Position numbers and translations under genes: made by a program. A stretch of 64,000 bases of DNA from positions 4,122-68,121 of the forward strand of contig CALXJF010000004.1 of the NCBI GenBank assembly GCA_944388575.1. Reading direction: 5' to 3'. The notes below the pieces were generated by a model, which was given only the letters and a program-made list of their open reading frames with translations, ran no database searches and was not told the DNA's origin. The stretch comes from an uncultured Clostridia bacterium (GTDB taxonomy: Bacteria > Bacillota > Clostridia > TANB77 > CAG-465). Of this stretch, positions 3,858 through 27,310 are shown in pieces (the first letter of the stretch is position 1; every line of letters starts with the position of its first letter).

Positions 3858-4016
3858 ATTTTACCTCTTCTTTCTATTTTAAAAACTAAGTTTATTATAT
3901 CAAAAAAAAGCTTAAAATACAACAAAAACATAAAGTTAAAATATCAAAACTCTTAACCTTAAATTTATATATAAATCATATTCTATGCACATTTATAGAA
4001 ATTTTTAAATACGAAG

Positions 4017-4045
4017 TTGACATATTAAATAGCTAGTGATATAAT
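4017..4045 (+). promoter_or_regulatory. sigma-A type promoter
   Basis: TTGACA, 17-nt spacer, TATAAT, about 50 nt upstream of ORF 4095. Confidence 0.5.
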
Positions 4046-4094
4046 TAAATTCATATTATTCATGTAATACTAATAAAATTAGGAGGTATAAATA

Positions 4095-6282: not shown

Positions 6283-6855
6283 CTACATTTTTTTATTTAA
6301 AATTTTAATGCTAATTAATCCTATAATTAATGCAATGATAGTAACTATCCACACCGGCACTATGATTTCGCTTGGATTTTTCGAACCATATAAAGCTCTC
6401 ATTGCTATCATACTAGTTGGTATTAATTGTAATGAAGCTGTATTAATTAAAACAAAAGTTGTTATATTATCATTTGGTAAACTCTTAATTGGATTTTCTT
6501 TTTGCAATTCTTCCATAGCCTTTATTCCATTTACAGTAGAGGCATTTCCTACTCCAATTATATTAGTAGATATATTCATACTCATATATTCAACACTCTT
6601 TTTCGATAGTTCTTTTTTGTTAAAAATTTTATAAATAAAGCGTTTAAAAAAATTTCCAAACTTTTCAATAGCACTAGTATTTTCAAAGATATTAAAAATA
6701 CCACTCCAAAAACAAGTCATCGCAATCAACGAAAATATATTTTCTATTGCATTTTGTCCACTTTCCATAATATTTGTTATAACATTTTCTGTATAACCTG
6801 TAAAAAAAGCAACCACTATACTTACTACAATCATAAATGACCATATTTTAGACAT
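6283..6855 (-). CDS. spmA: spore maturation protein A
   Basis: Close match from memory to Bacillus SpmA (GVGNASTVNGIKAMEELQKENP, LIPTSMIAMRALYGSKNPSEII). Start set at ATG 6855 after a GGAGGCG SD. Confidence 0.82.
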   Translation of the reverse strand: MSKIWSFMIVVSIVVAFFTGYTENVITNIMESGQNAIENIFSLIAMTCFWSGIFNIFENTSAIEKFGNFFKRFIYKIFNKKELSKKSVEYMSMNISTNIIGVGNASTVNGIKAMEELQKENPIKSLPNDNITTFVLINTASLQLIPTSMIAMRALYGSKNPSEIIVPVWIVTIIALIIGLISIKILNKKM

Positions 6856-8371: not shown

Positions 8372-8516
8372 ACTTTTTCTGACTTTTTCCCAACTCTGTT
8401 TTGGTAGTAGCACACTTAAGTTATTTTATTTAACATTACTTCTAATATTTTATTATATACTCCTCATTCTCATCATATATGTATATATCTCCATATATTT
8501 TAATGTAATTATATTA

Positions 8517-8765
8517 TTTAACCTTTCTTAATTCTTTGAAAAACTCCGTTAATATTTTTGACCAATCTTCACAATTATCTAAATATTCATACTCAACCTT
8601 ATGAGTAAAATTTTCATCTAAAATGTTACACACTGAACCAACACAACCATTTTTGCAATCTTTTGCTCCACTTTGTTCTATTAACTTTTGTAATTTAAAA
8701 TTAATATTTAAATTAATGGCTTGTTTAGTTGTTCAATTAAAACCTACTACACTTTCATCGCCTAG
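8517..8765 (-). pseudogene. chimeric remnant: tadA 3' fragment fused to an internal cwlD fragment
   Basis: 8517-8670 aligns to 10519-10681 (tadA 3' end, about 8 mismatches in about 150 nt). 8660-8765 aligns to 11433-11535 (inside cwlD). The junction lies at the shared 11-mer CTTTTGCTCCA. Confidence 0.75.
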
Positions 8766-10395: not shown

Positions 10396-10516
10396 TGTAT
10401 ATTTTCCTGACTCAGTAGATGTAAGTGAATACTTAAGTTATTTAACATTACATATAATATTTCAATTATATAGTCCTCATTCTCATCATATATGTCTATA
10501 TTTTACTTTAATTATA

Positions 10517-10963
10517 TCATTTAATCTTTCTTAATTCTTTAAAAAATTCTGTTAATATTTTTGAACAATCTTCACAATTATCTAAATATTCATACTCAAC
10601 CTTATGAGTAAAATTTTCATCTAAAATGTTACACATTGAACCAACACAACCATTTTTAAAATCTTTTGCTCCAATATAAACTTTATCTATTCTTGATTGT
10701 ATTAATGCACCAGCACACATAGGACATGGTTCCAGAGTAACATACATTTGTGCACCTTCAAGTCTCCATGTATTTAGTTTTTTACAAGCTTTCTCTATAC
10801 ATAAAACTTCAGCATGAGCTAGAGAAGATGTTTTAGTTTCCCTTAAGTTATGTGCTCTTGCTATTATTTTATTATCTTTTACTATAACAGCTCCAACTGG
10901 CACTTCTAATTTACTATATGCTTTTTTAGCCTCTTTAAAAGCTTCAATCATAAACTCATTCAT
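10517..10963 (-). CDS. tadA: tRNA adenosine(34) deaminase TadA
   Basis: HAEVLCIEKA and PCPMCAGAL zinc-binding motifs of the CDA fold. Start set at ATG 10963 after an AAGGAGGT SD. Confidence 0.92.
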   Translation of the reverse strand: MNEFMIEAFKEAKKAYSKLEVPVGAVIVKDNKIIARAHNLRETKTSSLAHAEVLCIEKACKKLNTWRLEGAQMYVTLEPCPMCAGALIQSRIDKVYIGAKDFKNGCVGSMCNILDENFTHKVEYEYLDNCEDCSKILTEFFKELRKIK

Positions 10964-11696
10964 TAGTACCTCCTTCATTTGTAAAATACTCTTGTAAACC
11001 TGTATATATTCCCCAAGCCAATTTGTTCTGATATGTATCTTCTTTTAGTAAACGAACTTCCTCAGGATTAGATAAAAAACCACATTCTATTATAACTGAT
11101 GGTATTTGTACATGATCCATAATATATATACCAGTTATTGGCATAGGAGTTCTATCATTTTTAAATTCTATATTATTACTAAGATTATTTTGAATTATAT
11201 TTGAAAGCTGCTTACTTTTCTCATTATTATTTTGATAAAAAGTTTGCCAACCTCTATATATCTCAGATGGCGGATATTTATTTAAATGTATAGAAATAAA
11301 CACATCAGCATTACTATTATTACCTATTTCCACCCTATTTTTTATATCACTTACTTTTTTATTTCTTATACTTTTACTGTCTAAAGAATATATTCCATTT
11401 TCATCACTTCTCGTTAAAACTACTTTTGCTCCACTTTGTTCTATTAACTTTTGTAATTTCAAACTAATACTTAGATTAATGGCTTGTTCAGTTGTTCCAT
11501 TAAAACCTACTGCACCCTCATCTGGTAAACCATGTCCTGCATCTATGACAATAACTTTATTAGTTATAGGTAATGCATTTACTGAAGCAACTTGATTAGG
11601 CAATCTTCTCATATTAATTATACCATACATAACAAGAGAAAGACAAATAAATATAATTACTATTATTATCCTTTTACGCATTATAGATAAATTCAT
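10956..11696 (-). CDS. cwlD: germination-specific N-acetylmuramoyl-L-alanine amidase CwlD
   Basis: N-terminal TM, then IDAGHGLPDEGAVG, ISIHLNKYP and WQTFYQ, the Amidase_3 signature as in CwlD. Confidence 0.85.
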   Translation of the reverse strand: MNLSIMRKRIIIVIIFICLSLVMYGIINMRRLPNQVASVNALPITNKVIVIDAGHGLPDEGAVGFNGTTEQAINLSISLKLQKLIEQSGAKVVLTRSDENGIYSLDSKSIRNKKVSDIKNRVEIGNNSNADVFISIHLNKYPPSEIYRGWQTFYQNNNEKSKQLSNIIQNNLSNNIEFKNDRTPMPITGIYIMDHVQIPSVIIECGFLSNPEEVRLLKEDTYQNKLAWGIYTGLQEYFTNEGGTNE

Positions 11697-18665: not shown

Positions 18666-19397
18666 CTATAAATTGTTACATATTTGCAACTGCATATTTG
18701 ATAATTTATCCTTTTTATTATTTACTAATTTCATCATATTTTGAATTATATTAATTTCTTTTACACATTCAATATCATTTGCTACTTTGTTTCTTTCCCT
18801 ATTTAAAGCTTTAGCTAAATTATTCATTTTTTCAAAATCAAGTTTTTCGTAATATTTATACCACTCTTTACACTTATCTTTAAATTTATCAGCTCTATTT
18901 AAAATATTATTTATCCCACTTTCAATTTTATTACTAAAAGATTTATTAAATATAAAATCTTTAGTTTTATTTATAAAATCTTTTATTATATTATAAAAAA
19001 TATTATTTTTTAAATATTTATTAGTAACTATATCTATAGCAGCACAGATTCCTTCTCTTAATCCACCTTTAAAAGTAATATCTGTAATTTTAGTTATATC
19101 AGTTATAACATTTTTGGGCAATTTTAATAATTCTAATCCTTCACTAATACTACTTCCAACAGCAGTTTTAATTATTTGCTTAAAATCTTTTGTCTCAAAA
19201 GATTTCTTTACATCTAATAATATATTTTTTATATTATTATTAATCGGCATTGATTTTATAACATAATCAGCCCCCCTATTTACTACATCAAAAGCAAGAT
19301 TTGAGAAAACTCTTTGTGATCTATTTGCAGCTACATCTATCTCAATATTTCTATCTCTATTTTTTATAATTTCATTTGAATCTATTAATAATTCCAT
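18666..19397 (-). CDS. soluble helical/coiled-coil protein of unknown function (last gene of the ATPase operon)
   Basis: 243 aa with no TM segment and a GGGAGG SD. Its start lies 1 nt after the stop of the platform gene. Confidence 0.6.
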   Translation of the reverse strand: MELLIDSNEIIKNRDRNIEIDVAANRSQRVFSNLAFDVVNRGADYVIKSMPINNNIKNILLDVKKSFETKDFKQIIKTAVGSSISEGLELLKLPKNVITDITKITDITFKGGLREGICAAIDIVTNKYLKNNIFYNIIKDFINKTKDFIFNKSFSNKIESGINNILNRADKFKDKCKEWYKYYEKLDFEKMNNLAKALNRERNKVANDIECVKEINIIQNMMKLVNNKKDKLSNMQLQICNNL

Positions 19398-19398
19398 T

Positions 19399-20286
19399 TT
19401 ATTCCTCCCTTTTTATAATTTTCATAATAGTTAAAATAATTATCAAATATAAAAAAACGTTAAAATCAATTAAAACTCTACCTAAAATTGAATTAAATAT
19501 TATCTCTTTATATATTGTATTTTTTAAAATAACGTAGAACACTAAGAAAATATTTACTAATATAATAATTCCTAATATAAATAAATAATAATTCATTTTT
19601 TCTTTCTGTTTTTTTCGTAAACTACTAATTTGCACATAATATTTATTAAATTGATTTATAACTTTACTTATGCATCCTCCATTTATATAACATAACTTTA
19701 ATAAGTGAATAAATATATTTATTTCTTTTATATTTATTTCATCAGCTAAAAAATTAAGAGCTTTAACTATTTCAAATCCACTGTTTAATAAATTATTAAA
19801 TTCATTAATAAATATATTCAAAGGCTTAGTAGCTTGAATTTGTTTTAATGCCATAATAATATCATTTGAATTTTTAGAAAAACTTTCAAATCCTATAATA
19901 TATAGTGAAAAAGATTTCTTTATTTTATTTTTTAATTGTATTTTTATTATTTCTAAAAATAACATTGGTAAAATAAAGAATATTATAGAAATTATAAATG
20001 AACTAAGAATTAATTTTAAATTATAAAAAACTAGAATAAAAACTATTATGGCAAAAATAACAGAAAAAACAAATAAGTTAAAAGTATTAATTATTGATAT
20101 ATTAATAGGATATACTTTTTTTATATAATCTAAAGATTTAGATATATTTTTAATATAATTATTTTTTTTTACAAAATATTTAAAAATTTTAATTATGTTA
20201 GTATAATTTAATGATAATATATAATTTATTATATGGTAAATTAGTATTAGCGTAATTATACATATAAAAACTTTAATAATTATCAT
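19399..20286 (-). CDS. T2SS-F / TadB-TadC-like platform membrane protein
   Basis: 295 aa with the layout N-terminal TM, cytoplasmic helical domain (IIMALKQIQATKPLNIFINEFNNLLNSGFEIVKALNFLADEI...), then C-terminal TMs. ATGA overlap with the upstream ATPase gene. Confidence 0.72.
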   Translation of the reverse strand: MIIIKVFICIITLILIYHIINYILSLNYTNIIKIFKYFVKKNNYIKNISKSLDYIKKVYPINISIINTFNLFVFSVIFAIIVFILVFYNLKLILSSFIISIIFFILPMLFLEIIKIQLKNKIKKSFSLYIIGFESFSKNSNDIIMALKQIQATKPLNIFINEFNNLLNSGFEIVKALNFLADEINIKEINIFIHLLKLCYINGGCISKVINQFNKYYVQISSLRKKQKEKMNYYLFILGIIILVNIFLVFYVILKNTIYKEIIFNSILGRVLIDFNVFLYLIIILTIMKIIKREE

Positions 20287-21443
20287 CTAGGATACCTCTT
20301 ATAAATAGATCTGATAAAGTATTTATTTTTCTTTAAATCGTATTCTATATTTCCAATTTCTTCTATTTTATAATCTTTCATAAAAATTATACAGTTAATA
20401 CAACTATACAGTATTTTTTTTATGAACTCTTCGTCATACTTTTGTGCTTTTATATCTCTTTTACATAGAAGTACTAATCTGTCTATTACAGTAAAAATAG
20501 AATCTGCATGTACTGTCGAAAAACCTATATGTCCAGTATTAATAGCATCAAAAAATACAGAAGTTTCTTCTCCTTTTAATTCTCCAACTACAATTATATC
20601 GTTTGACATTACTAAACTATGTTTTAATAAAGTCTTTAAATCAATTCTATTATTAATTTTATTCATACCAATTTCTCTTTGGATAATATTTTTATTTTCT
20701 ATAAATAATTCACTAGTCTCCTCACATACAGTCATAGGTATTATATCTGGAAAAGTTGTTAAAATTGTTCTTAACAACGTAGTTTTTCCGCTACCTCCTT
20801 TTCCTGCTATTATGGTACTATACCTATTATTTATTATATATCTTAGTTCTTTTAAACTCTTCTCATCTAACATTTTCTTTTTATATAAATCATTTAAATT
20901 ATAATTACTAAATCTATGTATTCTTATAATTAAGTTATCATCTATATAATTAATTGGAGATATTCCAGCTTCTATTCTAAGCTTATATTCTTTATCACTA
21001 ACAATAACAATAGGGTTATCATAATTAATAACACCATTATTTTTTACAATACAATATTTAATGTAATCTCTAAATTCTTCCTTGTTATTAAATTTTTCAT
21101 CAACAATTTTCCATGCTCCATTTATTTTTATATATACTAGATTATATCTTACTACTCTTATATCAGACACACTCTTATTATCTATATACTTTTGAAGAAC
21201 TCCATATCCAAAAATTTTATTTAATACACTACTTATTATATCTTTATAATTATAACTCTTATCAACACAATATTTTAAACAGATATATTCTTTTATTTTT
21301 CCTTCAAAAAAATCCTTATTTTTAGTAAATAGATATTTAGAATAATTTGTAGATATATATTTTATTACTTCATCAATATCTACTGTACTGTTCTTTTCTT
21401 TTATAATATTTTTTTTACTAACATCAAAAGGATTAATTATCAT
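20283..21443 (-). CDS. CpaF/TadA/VirB11-class secretion ATPase
   Basis: Walker A GKGGSGKTTLL, Asp box CEETSEL, Walker B IIVVGELKGEE, His box NTGHIGFSTVHA. Confidence 0.88.
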   Translation of the reverse strand: MIINPFDVSKKNIIKEKNSTVDIDEVIKYISTNYSKYLFTKNKDFFEGKIKEYICLKYCVDKSYNYKDIISSVLNKIFGYGVLQKYIDNKSVSDIRVVRYNLVYIKINGAWKIVDEKFNNKEEFRDYIKYCIVKNNGVINYDNPIVIVSDKEYKLRIEAGISPINYIDDNLIIRIHRFSNYNLNDLYKKKMLDEKSLKELRYIINNRYSTIIAGKGGSGKTTLLRTILTTFPDIIPMTVCEETSELFIENKNIIQREIGMNKINNRIDLKTLLKHSLVMSNDIIVVGELKGEETSVFFDAINTGHIGFSTVHADSIFTVIDRLVLLCKRDIKAQKYDEEFIKKILYSCINCIIFMKDYKIEEIGNIEYDLKKNKYFIRSIYKRYPR

Positions 21444-22653
21444 ATTTCTTTCCTATTGTATATATTTTTTTCAATAAATTATATCTATTACAATCTGATT
21501 TTAATCCTAAACTTTTATATAACATATTCATATCTATATCTATATTTAAATTAATACTTCCTCCATTTATATACGCTTCAACCTCTTTATAATAATCTAA
21601 TGTACATACAATTTTATATCCATTTAATAATGACTCAATTTGTTTTTTATCTAAAGAATCCTTTTGCCTTTTGTTAATGATTAAATGAATTTTACCTGTA
21701 TCATTATCCCAAAACCTTGTTATTAAATTAATATACTTTATAGCTTGTCTAATACTCATGTAGTTTGCATTAATAATAAATAATATTTTATCAGCTATAT
21801 TTAACGTATAAGGAACCACATCTAAAAAAGGTGATGATGGTAAATCTATTAAAGTATAATCACATTTTTTATGCACACTACTATATAACTTATCATAATA
21901 CTTACTAGATAGCTTATTTTGACAATCAAATAAACTGCAATTATTTGTTATGTACCAAAGATTTTTATTATCACAATCCTTAATCATATATTTTGAGATT
22001 ATGCTATTAACATCTTCTGAATTGTCTACACTTTCCACTATTTTGGAAAAAAGTGCATCTTTTTCATCGATGTTATTTATAATATCAATAGAAGGAGATT
22101 GTATATCCATGTCAAGAAGAGCAACCTTTATTTTAAAATCTTTTGCTAGTTTTTTTGCAATAATACTTGAAACTACTGATTTTCCTGAACCACTAGTACC
22201 GTAAATAGCTATAATTTTTTTAGTTATAACGTTATTATCGATTATATAATTTTGTGTTTCCTCTTTTATTACTTCATTATTTTTATATACAACCTTTTTA
22301 TCCTCTGTTATACTAGTTAATACCTCATTAATATCTATCTCTTCTCCTTCAATAATATTAAATACTTCATTTGCGAATAAAAATTCTTTATACTCCTTTG
22401 TTAATCTATTAACTAAATAAACAATATTAGTTTTAGGATTTGCTAATTTTATTTGTTTTATATACATTTTATTATCAATATTTCCATTTAAACTATCTCT
22501 TGTTACAAGAATAAATTCTGTATCATTTTGACTTAGAAATTCTATTACATTTTCTTTGGAATCTATATCATATTTATAAACCTTGTCTTTTACAAATTTA
22601 TTATTTATTCTTTTATATATTTCTTCATTATCAAGTGCGACCAATATATTCAT
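21433..22653 (-). CDS. TadZ/CpaE-like protein: atypical receiver domain plus a ParA/MinD-type ATPase
   Basis: The N-terminal region of about 120 aa has a receiver-like beta-alpha pattern (ILVALDNEE..., FILVTRD). The C-terminal part has the deviant Walker A IAIYGTSGSGKSVVSS and LLDMD. Start set at ATG 22653 (AAGGTG SD). Confidence 0.72.
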   Translation of the reverse strand: MNILVALDNEEIYKRINNKFVKDKVYKYDIDSKENVIEFLSQNDTEFILVTRDSLNGNIDNKMYIKQIKLANPKTNIVYLVNRLTKEYKEFLFANEVFNIIEGEEIDINEVLTSITEDKKVVYKNNEVIKEETQNYIIDNNVITKKIIAIYGTSGSGKSVVSSIIAKKLAKDFKIKVALLDMDIQSPSIDIINNIDEKDALFSKIVESVDNSEDVNSIISKYMIKDCDNKNLWYITNNCSLFDCQNKLSSKYYDKLYSSVHKKCDYTLIDLPSSPFLDVVPYTLNIADKILFIINANYMSIRQAIKYINLITRFWDNDTGKIHLIINKRQKDSLDKKQIESLLNGYKIVCTLDYYKEVEAYINGGSINLNIDIDMNMLYKSLGLKSDCNRYNLLKKIYTIGKKYDN

Positions 22654-24400
22654 TATTTTCACCTTCTATTATCTCATCTTCATAATTGCTTGCCTTAACT
22701 TTTAATACTGTATTATTATTACAAAATCCCAATAACATACTTCCTTTTTCTAATCTAGATACATCTTTTAATGTATCTTTAGCTATGACATTCAACTTAG
22801 ATAAAACTTCACTATCTGAATACTCTAATTTAAAAAACACCTTAAATTCAGAGTTGTTTAGTATAACTTTACCATAGTTTCCTTTATTTATACTAAAAAA
22901 ATCTGAAATATCTTGAGTTATTGTAACAATACTTGCCTTATTTTTTCTAATAGACTTATATAGAGAACAAATTAATTTAGCTATATTTCCATTTACATCA
23001 TTATTTATATATTTCCATAATTCATCTACATATATAATAACATCATTATTTAATCTATTATTTCTTAAATATTTATTTATCTTATTTAATAAATAAGATA
23101 CTACAACCTTCATTTTATCATATGTTAAAAAGCTCGTATCAAATACGACACTTGTATCAAGATTAATATTAGAATAATTAGAAAATTCACTATATTCATC
23201 TACTATATATTTTATTTTTTTTCTTAAATCATTTTCACTTATTTCATTAAGCAGATCATACATATTTGGAAACATATTATTTTTTTTAAGTTTTTTTTCT
23301 ATAAATATCTTTTCATCAGTATTTTCTATATATAAACTATTGATATCATAAGTAATGTTTTTTTCTAAATATACTTTTATCAAATAATCTTTTAAAATCT
23401 TTTTATCATTATTGTTAAGTTTTACAATAATAGAAATAAAGTCTATTATTTCTTGAATTTTATATTTTAATACATTAGATTCATATATTTCTATATCGCC
23501 CTCATTTATATCCATTATATTAATAAATTTATTATTATTTTTATTTCCAAACCTTACTAAATTTATATTTAATTTTTCAGCTAAATTATTATATTCTCCT
23601 TCAATATCAAATATATATTGTATTTTTCCTTTTAAAAAATGTCTTAAAACAATCAATTTAGTAAAATATGATTTACCACTACCACTACTACCTAATATAA
23701 TAATATTAGAATTTATATATTTTCTATCAAATATATCTATAATACTTAACTTATTTTCATTTTTGGTATAACCAAATATTATTCCATTTTTATCAAATGC
23801 ACTCCTAGTATAAAAAGGGAATATATTGGATAATGTAGAAGTAGTAATATTTCTATAGTTTTTATTAATTAAAATATTATCATAATTATTTATTGGTAAT
23901 GTTAATATATAGGAATCTAAATTTCTAAAATTACTTATATTAGAATAAATCTGTTTTGAAAAAAGTTTGCTTTGAAAATTTTTTATTATTTTAAATAATT
24001 CATCTTTATTATATGAGTAAAAAGTTATAAATAAGTTAAATTTATATACTTCTTCATTATTAAGTTGTATTTGCTTTCTTAATTCTTTTGAATCTATTTG
24101 TTGTTTATTTAATAAATCTATATCAATTTGATTTTTATTTGTTGTTTTTAATTCAGATTTATAGTTTGATAAATTATATGATATATCTTTTAGAACTTTT
24201 AAAGTATCTAATTTTTGAATATAAATACTAACATCATACATATATTTTTTTTCTATTGAATTAATTATTTGAGTAAAATATATTTTTACAGGATAATCAT
24301 ATATAACTAAACTAGCAATATATTTATCATCTACTTTTAAATAATTAAAATTAGAATTATCTATAAATGATGGAAAAAAATTAAATTTTATATTATGCAA
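22631..24400 (-). CDS. VirB4-family (TraE/TrsE-like, AAA_10) ATPase, main body
   Basis: FFPSFID...YIASLVIYDYP entry motif, Walker A ILGSSGSGKSYF, FDIEGEY, Walker B IIYVDELWKY, and VTITQDISDF. TTG start, in frame with the upstream 170-aa ORF. Confidence 0.8.
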   Translation of the reverse strand: MHNIKFNFFPSFIDNSNFNYLKVDDKYIASLVIYDYPVKIYFTQIINSIEKKYMYDVSIYIQKLDTLKVLKDISYNLSNYKSELKTTNKNQIDIDLLNKQQIDSKELRKQIQLNNEEVYKFNLFITFYSYNKDELFKIIKNFQSKLFSKQIYSNISNFRNLDSYILTLPINNYDNILINKNYRNITTSTLSNIFPFYTRSAFDKNGIIFGYTKNENKLSIIDIFDRKYINSNIIILGSSGSGKSYFTKLIVLRHFLKGKIQYIFDIEGEYNNLAEKLNINLVRFGNKNNNKFINIMDINEGDIEIYESNVLKYKIQEIIDFISIIVKLNNNDKKILKDYLIKVYLEKNITYDINSLYIENTDEKIFIEKKLKKNNMFPNMYDLLNEISENDLRKKIKYIVDEYSEFSNYSNINLDTSVVFDTSFLTYDKMKVVVSYLLNKINKYLRNNRLNNDVIIYVDELWKYINNDVNGNIAKLICSLYKSIRKNKASIVTITQDISDFFSINKGNYGKVILNNSEFKVFFKLEYSDSEVLSKLNVIAKDTLKDVSRLEKGSMLLGFCNNNTVLKVKASNYEDEIIEGENNEYIGRT

Positions 24401-24409
24401 TTCCTCCTC

Positions 24410-24922
24410 CTATAATTTGTTTAAATGTTTATATAATATCTTTTCAAATTCATATCTACCATGTACTCTAATTACTTTACAACCAATCTCTTCAAGTTTA
24501 TAAACAACTCTATCATACTCATCAACATTTATTTTTTCCTTACTATTTTCAGATATTACAATTAAAATTTTTGTTTCATATACATCTTCAATCTCTAATT
24601 TTTGTTTTATATCTTCAATGTATTTTATATATATATCAAGTGGAATTATTTCTTTATATGAATAATACCTTTCTATATAATTATCTATATCTAACCTCTC
24701 ATTAGATATAACAATCTGTATTTTAAAATTACATTCTCTTAAAAGCTGAGTATATACTTCTATAATGTTGTATTGTATACTTTCTGATAAATCTAAAAAC
24801 AGTACAGGTTCTATTCTATATAAATATACCCTTTCAATATTTTTATTTATTCTTGTTAAAATGTACTCATCTTTCACAGCCTCAATTTTAAATAATTCTT
24901 CTATATCTTTATATTTTGACAT
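24410..24922 (-). CDS. detached VirB4 N-terminal domain (170 aa)
   Basis: The pattern I..I.......Y.I.P......S......II..Y..LL....FKIQIVI, then a K.EE.G.KV....G.E.... tail, matches from memory the first ~170 aa of Gram-positive VirB4 proteins. It is separated from the ATPase body only by TAG plus 3 codons in the same frame. Confidence 0.55.
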   Translation of the reverse strand: MSKYKDIEELFKIEAVKDEYILTRINKNIERVYLYRIEPVLFLDLSESIQYNIIEVYTQLLRECNFKIQIVISNERLDIDNYIERYYSYKEIIPLDIYIKYIEDIKQKLEIEDVYETKILIVISENSKEKINVDEYDRVVYKLEEIGCKVIRVHGRYEFEKILYKHLNKL

Positions 24923-24958: not shown

Positions 24959-24987
24959 ATATTAATACAATTATGTAAAATTGTCAA
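24959..24987 (-). promoter_or_regulatory. sigma-A type promoter of the VirB4/Tad-like operon
   Basis: On the minus strand: TTGACA (24987-24982), 17-nt spacer, TAATAT (24964-24959), about 35 nt upstream of ATG 24922. Confidence 0.6.
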
Positions 24988-25009
24988 CCATTTTTTGTTT
25001 ATTTTTCGT

Positions 25010-25023
25010 CGCAAGTTTCGACA
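25010..25023 (-). promoter_or_regulatory. conserved 14-nt element TGTCGAAACTTGCG (contains a Spo0A-box-like TGTCGAA), copy 1
   Basis: Identical to the 14-mer at 26415-26428. In both cases exactly 22 nt separate it from a TTGACA -35 box. Confidence 0.6.
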
Positions 25024-25053
25024 TAAAATTTAAATAAATATTTTTTTATTATA

Positions 25054-25082
25054 TTCACAGTTTTAAAAGTAATGCATATAAT
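25054..25082 (+). promoter_or_regulatory. divergent promoter of the small-protein operon
   Basis: TTCACA, 17-nt spacer, TATAAT. It lies 31 nt from the 14-nt element. Confidence 0.5.
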
Positions 25083-25115
25083 TAATATATATACATATAA
25101 AAGGAGATGATTAAC

Positions 25116-25307
25116 ATGAACAATAATTCAAATGAAATGAATAATATGTTAAACTCAAAACTAGTAGAATTGCTGTCTAATATTGATAAAAACAAAATAG
25201 AACAAGTTAGTAGAATGGTACAGAATATGTCAAGTGAAGACTTAACAAATTTGGTTGGAATGCTTAGTAAACAAACAAACAAAAATAATAATTCTCAAAA
25301 TACTTAA
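25116..25307 (+). CDS. small Asn-rich soluble protein (63 aa)
   Basis: GGAGA SD 8 nt before ATG 25116. First of three tightly packed genes. No family recognised. Confidence 0.55.
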   Translation: MNNNSNEMNNMLNSKLVELLSNIDKNKIEQVSRMVQNMSSEDLTNLVGMLSKQTNKNNNSQNT

Positions 25308-25309
25308 TT

Positions 25310-25768
25310 ATGAATGAAAATACAACTCAAAGTACTGAAAACCAAACTGCACTATATGATTTAATTCAAAGCATTCAATCAAAAATGGATTTAAAAAAAG
25401 TTGAACAAATTGAAGAAAATAATACTAAAGAAAATAATGAATTAAATAAAGAAGAAAATATAATAAATAGTAATAATAATATTTCTTCATTGTTAAATAA
25501 TTTAGATATTTCTAAAATTATTGGAATGTTTAATTCAAACTCAAATTCTAATACAAATGAAAATATTTTTAATGATATAGATCCAAATACCATTCTAAAA
25601 ATACAAAAAATTATTTCAAATTTTAGTAAAAATGATCCTAAAAAAGATCTTCTAAAATCATTAAAACCGTTTCTTAGAAAATCAAGACAAGATAAAATAG
25701 GAGAATATATAACTATTTTATCACTAGTTGACGCAATAGATATTTTTGGTAGTAAAGGTAGTGATTAA
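25310..25768 (+). CDS. Asn/Glu-rich protein with a conserved-looking C-terminal helix (LKSLKPFLRKSRQDKIGEYITILSLVDAIDIF)
   Basis: 152 aa. Its start is 2 nt after the upstream stop. Confidence 0.55.
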   Translation: MNENTTQSTENQTALYDLIQSIQSKMDLKKVEQIEENNTKENNELNKEENIINSNNNISSLLNNLDISKIIGMFNSNSNSNTNENIFNDIDPNTILKIQKIISNFSKNDPKKDLLKSLKPFLRKSRQDKIGEYITILSLVDAIDIFGSKGSD

Positions 25769-25769
25769 A

Positions 25770-26210
25770 ATGTTCAATCAATATCCATATTTTAGATTTA
25801 ATAATACATATAATAGATTTAACAATTATAATCCTGCCTTTTTTACTAAAAAAAATAATGTAAATCCTATTCAAGAAGATAAAAAAAACAATGAAGAAAT
25901 AGAAGAAAATTTATATAATCAACCAAAAACAGATGACGCCACTAATTCAGATAATGAACAAGAAAAAAGAAAAACTAACCATACAAATAATGAATCAAAA
26001 AATACAAAATTTAGACTAGGTCCTATTGATATCACAAATGAAAGATTATCAATTTTTGGATTTAGTATTGCCTTTGATGATTTATTATTAATTGGTTTAA
26101 TTCTAATACTACTATTAGACTCAGATTGTGACTATGCCTTAATAATAGTATTAGGTCTAATGTTATTAAATATTAATATTAGTAGTTTAAATCTTTTTAA
26201 ATTCTTCTAA
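25770..26210 (+). CDS. Asn/Tyr/Phe-rich protein with C-terminal TM helices
   Basis: ATG 25770 lies 1 nt after the upstream stop. MFNQYPYFRFNNTYNRFNNYNP..., with C-terminal LLLIGLILILLLDSDCDYALIIVLGLMLL. Confidence 0.55.
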   Translation: MFNQYPYFRFNNTYNRFNNYNPAFFTKKNNVNPIQEDKKNNEEIEENLYNQPKTDDATNSDNEQEKRKTNHTNNESKNTKFRLGPIDITNERLSIFGFSIAFDDLLLIGLILILLLDSDCDYALIIVLGLMLLNINISSLNLFKFF

Positions 26211-26339
26211 ATCTTTATAATATTTTACTAATAATTTGTCAATTTCTACACTAGTCTCATATATTGTATCATATGAGTCTTCTTTTTTTATCTGTTCTTC
26301 TAATTTCTTTTTTAAAATATCTATTTCTTCAACAATCAC
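26187..26339 (-). CDS. Spo0E-family aspartyl-phosphate phosphatase-like protein (50 aa)
   Basis: GTG 26339 sits 9 nt after AAGGAG. MIVEEIDILKKKLEEQIKKEDSYDTIYETSVEIDKLLVKYYKDLEEFKKI fits the Spo0E pattern (I..L...L........S.E.D.LI..YY). The track start (TTG 26405) overlaps the predicted promoter. Confidence 0.6.
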   Translation of the reverse strand: MIVEEIDILKKKLEEQIKKEDSYDTIYETSVEIDKLLVKYYKDLEEFKKI

Positions 26340-26363
26340 TTTAATCAACTCCTTTGTAACATA

Positions 26364-26392
26364 TTTATACCATTTATGACTCCGTATGTCAA
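26364..26392 (-). promoter_or_regulatory. sigma-A type promoter of the Spo0E-like gene
   Basis: On the minus strand: TTGACA (26392-26387), 17-nt spacer, TATAAA (26369-26364). Confidence 0.55.
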
Positions 26393-26414
26393 TATTTGTT
26401 GTCAAAAAATCGTT

Positions 26415-26428
26415 CGCAAGTTTCGACA
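26415..26428 (-). promoter_or_regulatory. conserved 14-nt element TGTCGAAACTTGCG, copy 2
   Basis: Same sequence and same 22-nt distance to the -35 box as copy 1. Confidence 0.6.
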
Positions 26429-26563
26429 GTTTTCAAGTATTCTATCGACATATTTTTTACATAACTTTTAACTATATTATATATATTATGCAAAAAAGAA
26501 AGATTTTATACAAGAAAAAGAATAGTAGTATAATATATCAACTACTATCCTTTTCTTATATAT

Positions 26564-27310
26564 TTAAGAAAAATCATATATGTTTTTAGGTTTATCCACA
26601 ATACTTGTAAAACATATCTTGTCACAAGTAATACCCGTTACCAAATATTTGTCTGGTTGAATTAATATAAGTGTGGCAAATACAGGTATATTATCTTTAG
26701 GAAATCTACCAACAACACTAATTACAGAAGATTCTCTTAAATTCCCAATAACTTTATAGTTATTAGATTTTCTAAAAAAATCCACGATCGATTTAGAAAA
26801 GTAAATAATACTATTTCTTGATTTTCCGCCTTCTTTTTGAAGAAAAATGAAAGGATCTTCTTTTATTTCAATAATCTGCTTCTTACAGGTATTTATATTA
26901 TATTTAGATTTAATTTGATTTAGTGTTTTAGAAATCTCACTATTAAAGTTCTTAAAACAGTTATACTGTTTATAATCCTTACTAACTAAAGCATCTTCTT
27001 TATTTAATCTTAGACTATATCTATACTGACCAAAATATGGTACATCAAATTGAATATATGAATTCTCAATTTCATGAATATTTCCATTTACTAGTACAAA
27101 TCTCGATATAATAACTTTAAATGTAAAAATTTTTATATTTCCTTCTTGTCTTAAGGTTAATGATCTAAGAAATTGCTTAAGGTCAGATTGTTTTTGATAT
27201 ACGGCAATATTAGGATACATATCCATTTTTGCCTTATCAGATAAAAAATAAGCAACTCCATAAAGATCAATATCATAATTTTCTACTCGTTCTTCCTTGT
27301 TATTAAACAT
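26564..27310 (-). CDS. hypothetical protein (248 aa)
   Basis: Has its own promoter (TTGACG, 17 nt, TATAAT on the minus strand at about 27350-27385) and a GGAGG SD. It sits downstream of the M16 pair, where Bacillus carries ymf genes. Family not recognised with confidence. Confidence 0.6.
   Translation of the reverse strand: MFNNKEERVENYDIDLYGVAYFLSDKAKMDMYPNIAVYQKQSDLKQFLRSLTLRQEGNIKIFTFKVIISRFVLVNGNIHEIENSYIQFDVPYFGQYRYSLRLNKEDALVSKDYKQYNCFKNFNSEISKTLNQIKSKYNINTCKKQIIEIKEDPFIFLQKEGGKSRNSIIYFSKSIVDFFRKSNNYKVIGNLRESSVISVVGRFPKDNIPVFATLILIQPDKYLVTGITCDKICFTSIVDKPKNIYDFS

Follow-up and report, generated by a model that had tools for sequence, protein, structure and literature searches.

Spo0A is known to regulate its own gene, and it is a hallmark of this protein that it acts at both sigma-A and sigma-H promoters. 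In Bacillus subtilis, spo0E is controlled by AbrB, which amounts to an indirect feedback from Spo0A. The recognition sequence of Spo0A, the 0A box, is contacted at the bases G2, C4 and G5 (PMC3485338), and in dimer sites mapped by footprinting a consensus box is paired with an imperfect one at a distance of 3 bp (PMC2731898). Here we analyse a 64-kb stretch of chromosomal DNA from an uncultured gut Clostridia bacterium (24.8% G+C; hereafter the window), which contains two identical copies of a 15-nucleotide element, TGTCGAAACTTGCGA, one upstream of a Spo0E-like gene and the other upstream of an operon encoding VirB4-like and Tad-like ATPases. Judged by comparison with its relatives, the 15-mer is a genuine, strongly conserved cis-regulatory site at a constant phase relative to the -35 box, and it is probably an operator for Spo0A.

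The repeated element and its promoters

Both copies of the 15-mer lie on the minus strand, copy 1 at 25023-25009 and copy 2 at 26428-26414. A previous reading of the window (hereafter the sequence-only reading) had described an identical 14-nucleotide element, TGTCGAAACTTGCG, in two promoters. This 14-mer is indeed present exactly twice (25010-25023 and 26415-26428, minus strand), no further copy exists in the window even with up to three mismatches, and the identity in fact extends over 15 nucleotides. When the copies are compared in locked register, identity ends sharply on both sides of the 15-mer, and the flanks are 38% identical overall, as is typical for AT-rich DNA. The equal distance to the -35 box noted earlier also holds: in both copies, the 14-mer is followed after 22 nucleotides by TTGACA and after another 17 nucleotides by a -10 hexamer (copy 1: TTGACA at 24987-24982, TAATAT at 24964-24959; copy 2: TTGACA at 26392-26387, TATAAA at 26369-26364, with an extended -10 TG at 26372-26371). 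If the -10 hexamer is placed at -12 to -7, the 15-mer reaches from about -71 to -57, with its centre near -63.

Both promoters are of the sigma-A type. The operon promoter (24959..24987, minus strand) is listed by an independent promoter scan, and its TTGAC and TGnTA are kept in 36 orthologous promoters. The same scan reports a divergent TTCACA-17-TATAAT promoter. The promoter of the Spo0E-like gene (26364..26392, minus strand) is missing from its output because TATAAA has A at -10 position 6 and thus lacks the final T that the scan demands. This promoter is backed by TTGAC...TGnTAT, which is conserved in the consensus of 51 orthologous promoters.

The earlier assignments of the downstream genes agree with family searches. 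Copy 2 (26414..26428) precedes a gene with a GTG start codon (26187..26339, minus strand) whose 50-amino-acid product belongs to the Spo0E family (PF09388, 25.1 bits against a cutoff of 23). Copy 1 (25009..25023) precedes an operon (18666..24922, minus strand) for which gene calls and family searches indicate a 170-amino-acid protein (TraC-like in relatives), a VirB4-like ATPase (589 amino acids), a ParA/CpaE-like ATPase (409 amino acids), a TadA/VirB11-like ATPase (386 amino acids) and two membrane proteins of 295 and 243 amino acids, with a weak T2SSF match in relatives.

An alternative is that the repeat arose by chance, or is a piece of some dispersed repeat or mobile element, and has no regulatory role. 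AT-rich genomes are rich in short repeats, and if three mismatches are tolerated, shuffled sequences reach two matches in 28 of 100 trials. Exact 15-mer repeats with at least seven G or C, however, are expected only 0.05 times per window (60 first-order Markov simulations), which bears out the earlier statement that the repeat is unlikely by chance; the remaining repeats of this kind in the window are located in paralogous coding DNA at 8.4-11.4 kb or represent one coding pair. In addition, both sites and their spacing are kept across dozens of species, and no other copies occur within about 20 kb around each orthologous locus. A longer dispersed repeat or miniature inverted-repeat transposable element, which the sequence-only reading itself had named as a finding that would speak against it, was looked for as well: homology does not extend past the 15 nucleotides, and the orthologous loci contain promoter copies only. 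We therefore give a chance or mobile origin hardly any weight. The heptamer TGNCGAA, for its part, occurs 10 times in the window, about twice the earlier count of around five, with 5.6 +/- 2.05 expected and 10 reached by 2 of 100 shuffles. As an observation aside, the regions 8461-8680 and 10474-11443 have several G+C-rich 15-mers in common, which indicates paralogous coding sequence.

Conservation and genomic distribution

Positions fixed by the search pattern in scan-derived sets cannot be counted as conserved, and our argument for conservation is therefore based on homology-derived sites, that is, 14 promoters from eight relatives and the window, whose loci were found by protein homology and in which up to three mismatches were allowed. 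Positions 1-8 and 10-14 of the element are invariant in all 14; position 9 can be C, T or G and position 15 A, G or T, and the spacing to the -35 box is always 22 nucleotides. Identity of the flanks in the same promoters is 39% upstream and 53% in the spacer, which is A-rich in the orthologous promoters. Purifying selection on the element is evident from this alignment. The comparison of orthologous promoters in relatives, which had been suggested earlier, thus found both the element and its 22-nucleotide phasing conserved, and the Spo0A box recognized in its first seven nucleotides reads TGTCGAA in both copies and is invariant in the orthologues. Gene order is held as well, in relatives whose VirB4-like proteins are just 44-70% identical.

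At loci where only one promoter matched the scan, the partner promoter has a single change (TGTCGAATTTTGCGA; AGTCGAAATTTGCGA), a 21-nucleotide spacing (one case) or no element, and three additional variants found independently of selection by the pattern retain TTGCG. Together with the invariance described above, these variants indicate that TTGCG is constrained as much as the 0A core and that the element is either kept whole or lost. The operon promoter is without the element in some lineages (L014, 8237-8333, where the intergenic region is just 97 nucleotides long; L025, 9249-9568; and others), and a few lineages are without it at the Spo0E-like promoter; decayed intermediates were not seen among them.

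To survey its distribution, we scanned 185,579 genomes (one per species, 596 Gb) for the element followed by N22-TTGAC, which yielded 81 stretches. About 10 of these belong to unrelated phyla and are found mainly in G+C-rich or coding DNA, with about 17 expected by chance (2 x 596e9 / 4^18). The remaining stretches come from metagenome-assembled genomes of gut Clostridia, such as Clostridium sp. CAG:1219, CAG:921 and CAG:465, where the sites stand in front of one of two targets: the Spo0E-like gene, with 51 distinct promoters, or the operon, with 36. In two Acutalibacteraceae genomes (L160, L220), the same composite directly precedes spo0A (TIGR02875, 263.8 bits against a cutoff of 200).

The element with TTGACA at 22 nucleotides is also present upstream of a secreted protein of about 200 amino acids in two low-GC Clostridia (L171, 1073-1660; L206, 6095-6697), and the same architecture precedes a DUF4474 secreted protein. 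By eye, the signal region of the former (IGGQTFSKY) is like TasA/SipW-type signal peptides. A contig binned as Prevotella sp. (L164, 42% G+C) carries the composite with a good -10 box and a ribosome-binding site upstream of a 52-amino-acid gene (3938-4093); this contig looks like misbinned Firmicute or phage DNA.

The binding protein and the sign of regulation

From the anatomy of the element, its conservation, its phasing and its gene associations we infer the identity of the binding protein, and several lines of comparison point to Spo0A. The TGTCGAA core carries G2, C4 and G5, and its T-rich 5' and A-rich 3' flanks (ttTGTCGAAA) fit as well. In copy 1 a perfect 0A box (25023-25017) is followed by 3 bp and TGCGA, and the general geometry, TGTCGAA-AYT-TGCGAnn, resembles that of the footprinted dimer sites with their two boxes 3 bp apart. 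The candidate second boxes 3 bp past the core (TGCGAAC and TGCGACG) match at T1 and G2, in copy 2 also at A6, and have three to four mismatches with C4 and G5 off-register; this equals or slightly exceeds the number of mismatches in the imperfect boxes of phages phi29 and Nf (PMC2731898). Spo0A of two relatives (L165, L184; PF08769, 146 bits) contains a helix, SRVERAIRHAIEVAW, that is identical to chain 1LQ1, the co-crystal of B. subtilis Spo0A on DNA; the recognition helix of L165 is thus the same.

Further 0A-like boxes accompany copy 2. An auxiliary box TGTCGAT (26444..26450, minus strand) is located exactly 22 nucleotides upstream of its start and is also found in the relatives L011 and L012 and absent in L014. 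Within the 22-nucleotide spacer there is a reverse 0A-like box TTTGACA (26400..26406, minus strand), which agrees with TTCGNCA at five of six specified positions; at this offset some relatives have a perfect TTCGACA, and a match at five or more of the six positions is seen in 31% of the Spo0E-like promoters.

The bare 15-mer is also abundant in viral contigs, with at least 120 matches. Among the matches listed, 71 (21 distinct sequences in three promoter families) have the element 11 nucleotides from a weak -35 box (TTGAAA, TTGAAT or TTGATT), and five unrelated phage promoters combine it at 12 nucleotides with AGGAWWW-N14-GAAW, a sigma-H pattern. A metagenome scan for this sigma-H composite returned 48 stretches, in 30 of which GAAT or GAAA is found at N13-15, and one such composite is located on an unrelated contig upstream of another Spo0E-family gene (L268; 32.2 bits). 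By sequence, the element is thus paired with sigma-A-type promoters at 11 and 22 nucleotides, two spacings one helical turn apart, and with sigma-H-type promoters at 12 nucleotides. One phage family has an extra TGTCGAA exactly 10 bp upstream of the element, and a phage operon downstream of the element encodes a receiver-less Spo0A_C protein (126 amino acids; 116 bits). Most of the TGTCGAA boxes in phage DNA that had not been selected by the pattern seem, from their context, to lie in coding sequence and are therefore uninformative on the TTGCG extension. The company kept by the element, consisting of spo0A, Spo0E-family genes, sigma-H-type promoters, phased auxiliary 0A-like boxes and phage Spo0A_C operons, is what would be expected of Spo0A and, to our knowledge, of no other regulator. 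Control by Spo0A, which the sequence-only reading had suggested, is in this way backed by several independent comparative observations.

It might be argued that the 0A-box match is coincidental and that a different regulator of Clostridia and phages binds as a dimer to the imperfect palindrome TCGAAA-N-TTGCGA. The sole freely variable internal position (9) is the exact centre of this palindrome, TTGCG is as invariant as the 0A core although it is outside the published 0A consensus (PMC3485338), and the 14-mer was not found in the literature searched. However, the asymmetry of TCGAAA versus TCGCAA is never symmetrised in about 90 promoters, TGTCGAA-type boxes, single or in tandem, are found alongside it at distances of 10 and 22 bp, and the gene and promoter associations listed above are those of Spo0A; in addition, no candidate regulator gene is conserved beside the element among the orthologous loci compared. 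A regulator other than Spo0A therefore appears rather improbable.

Other identities considered for parts of the element were rejected. A second 0A box at +12/+13 (CGAYGAA, GACCGAT) is present and variable and fails to explain TTGCG. A sigma-54 promoter would have GG 10 nucleotides ahead of GC, which is lacking; a promoter of the extracytoplasmic function type requires an invariant AAC and CGT about 16 nucleotides downstream, and position 9, to which the C of GAAAC corresponds here, varies; and no AGGA is found upstream of the element, as would be the case for a sigma-H promoter (AGGA about 14 nucleotides upstream of GAAT) formed by the element itself.

We propose that the 15-mer would be an operator for a dimer of phosphorylated Spo0A (Spo0A~P), composed of the perfect 0A box TGTCGAA, 3 bp and a fixed imperfect box (TGCGA..). 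Positioned at about -71 to -55 on one helix face upstream of the two sigma-A promoters, it would tie transcription of the Spo0E-family gene, coding for a Spo0A~P phosphatase-type protein, and of the VirB4/Tad-like NTPase operon to the level of Spo0A~P. If Spo0A is the binding protein, activation is somewhat favoured over repression. The spacing is strict, the phage class differs from it by one helical turn, and the element is also used at weak -35 boxes and sigma-H-type promoters, all of which suggests that Spo0A~P might recruit RNA polymerase in a class-I-like manner. Activation of the Spo0E-like gene would result in negative feedback on Spo0A~P.

Several observations weigh against this proposal. 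A canonical 0A box leaves the invariant TTGCG unexplained, as a second box in the 10-bp register matches T1 and G2 only, not C4 and G5. No spo0A gene was found within the 64-kb window, and in the nearest relatives that show spo0A (L165, L184), its promoter is without the composite and has a reverse 0A box, which adjoins a TTGCG. The element is missing from one of the two promoters in several lineages. The promoters in the window have a consensus -35 box and 17-bp spacing, with an extended -10 box in copy 2, and such near-consensus promoters usually need no activator. Finally, a comparable footprinted Spo0A site, at a similar distance from a -35 box, represses in phage phi29 (PMC2731898). Because of these near-consensus promoters and the repressing phi29 site, we infer the sign of regulation rather than read it from the arrangement itself.

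Repression by the same protein would mean that Spo0A~P keeps the RNA polymerase alpha subunit's C-terminal domain off the A-rich DNA between the element and the -35 box, and once the phosphatase-type gene is shut off, cells would be locked into sporulation by positive feedback. The near-consensus TTGACA-17-TA...T promoters agree with such a role, as does the phi29 A2b promoter, where the consensus box is 26 bp upstream of the -35 box, the imperfect box faces the promoter and an UP element is blocked (PMC2731898). Occlusion, however, would work without the exact spacing observed (22 nucleotides, with one exception among the promoters) and without a one-turn difference from the 11-nucleotide phage class, and the weak -35 and sigma-H-type promoters at which the element is also found are typical activator-dependent settings. 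Repression is thus the less probable sign, and Spo0A~P acting as an activator is the reading we retain below.

Neighbouring genes, phage loci and comparison with known systems

Upstream of copy 1, the divergent TTCACA-17-TATAAT promoter (25054-25082) is followed by three small asparagine-rich genes for products of 66, 152 and 154 amino acids (whole unit 25054..26210, plus strand). Copy 1 had been proposed to control this unit jointly with the operon. Across species, the distance from the element to the -35 box of the divergent unit varies from 6 to 44 nucleotides, whereas that to the operon -35 box is constantly 22 nucleotides, and lineages without the element still have the divergent promoter. 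Because of the variable distance, there is no support for a shared control of the three small genes, and the divergent unit is probably outside the control of the element. The three genes always accompany the Spo0E-like gene; in one relative without the VirB4/Tad-like operon (L165, 1342-4707; L184), yabG and spo0A come next after the Spo0E-like gene and the three divergent genes. Between M16 peptidase genes and the Spo0E-like promoter, the window also contains a 248-amino-acid open reading frame (26564-27310, minus strand) with no family match, which is restricted to the species of the window and missing at this position in all other species examined (L011-L025). An Rfam search of the window found four tRNAs, all elsewhere, and no match at the element. 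Comparison of 20-30 kb with plasmids and phages by megablast gave no match, and we thus consider the locus chromosomal.

In gut phages (L073, with the element at 6717-6731 on the minus strand; L026, L027, L107; and about 70 more viral loci), the element promoter heads an early operon for an AntA antirepressor, the receiver-less Spo0A_C protein, a single-stranded DNA-binding protein (SSB) and an SbcC-like protein. A second promoter, TTGAC-17-TATAAT, lies about 100-150 nucleotides downstream and overlaps a GAAC-N4-GTTC (LexA-type) box, an arrangement that suggests dual input from the SOS response and sporulation into the early operon. Between 60 and 90 nucleotides past the start of the element, L073, L026, L027 and L078 have a conserved hairpin (e.g. 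TGTCC-GAAA-GGACA) followed by CTTCAAGTTCTGG; both would open the transcripts, are common to otherwise differing promoter families and have no Rfam match. The element with a sigma-H-type promoter was also found in a contig family from digester and bioreactor metagenomes (L230-L232, L234, L236, L237, L247, L257, L261, L264, L266, L269, L272), upstream of genes for uncharacterized products of 242 and 370 amino acids. Other sigma-H composites precede genes for a 1528-amino-acid secreted protein, a 668-amino-acid membrane protein whose N-terminus has a hydrophobic segment, and a 560-amino-acid protein.

For gut Clostridia never grown in culture, the element offers an exactly defined operator of the sporulation-initiation circuit that can be used in searches. 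From it one would predict that Spo0A directly controls a Spo0E-type phosphatase gene, and hence a feedback loop, as well as a VirB4/Tad-like secretion or pilus-type operon, and it suggests that many gut phages link their early genes to the Spo0A state of the host. Short DNA probes and the DNA-binding domain of Spo0A, which is well conserved, would allow these predictions to be checked. A more far-reaching idea, which we offer tentatively, is that TGTCGAAANTTGCGA might be an undescribed Clostridia-wide fixed-phase operator whose TTGCG half reflects a binding mode or partner of Spo0A~P beyond the classical 0A box. Hosts would use it for spo0A, Spo0E-type genes, the VirB4/Tad-like machine and secreted proteins, and in temperate gut phages it would lead the early operon, with its genes for the antirepressor, receiver-less Spo0A and SSB, beside the promoter with the LexA-type box; prophages would thereby read both the sporulation decision and DNA damage of the host. 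The fixed TTGCG extension, the rigid phasing and the breadth across uncultured Clostridia and phages were not found in the searchable literature, and the supplements of PMC3485338 contain no box sequences.

Like the phi29/Nf site 0A-3 and B. subtilis abrB, the element consists of a perfect TGTCGAA, 3 bp and a candidate imperfect unit starting with TG, and like the phi29/Nf site it is located upstream of the -35 box and used by phages too (PMC2731898). In contrast to these sites, its second unit does not drift but reads TGCGA throughout about 90 promoters and many phages, its CGA is one base off the canonical register, and it is locked at 22, 11 or 12 nucleotides from the promoter. The placement of 0A boxes upstream of sporulation-initiation promoters is shared with B. 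subtilis spoIIG, spoIIE, spoIIA and spo0A Ps and with C. difficile spo0A and sigH (PMC3485338). As in the B. subtilis and C. difficile systems, the element goes with promoters for both sigma factors and precedes spo0A, as autoregulation predicts. Whereas classical sigma-A targets are poor promoters with boxes overlapping the -35 region, the promoters here are near-consensus with the site centred near -63, and they serve a Spo0E-like gene and a VirB4/Tad-like operon instead of stage II genes. The class I activator CRP, for example, is centred at -61.5, and the element resembles class I sites in its centre at about -63, its strict helical phasing with one-turn variants and the A-rich stretch before the -35 box; unlike with CRP, the protein would belong to another family, the site lacks symmetry and any contact with the alpha subunit is putative. 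As for B. subtilis spo0E and AbrB, expression of a Spo0E-type phosphatase gene would be coupled to Spo0A activity, but this coupling would be direct, through an operator in the Spo0E-like promoter. Compared with these systems, the element is most likely a Spo0A-type operator that is ordinary in kind but unusually sharply defined.

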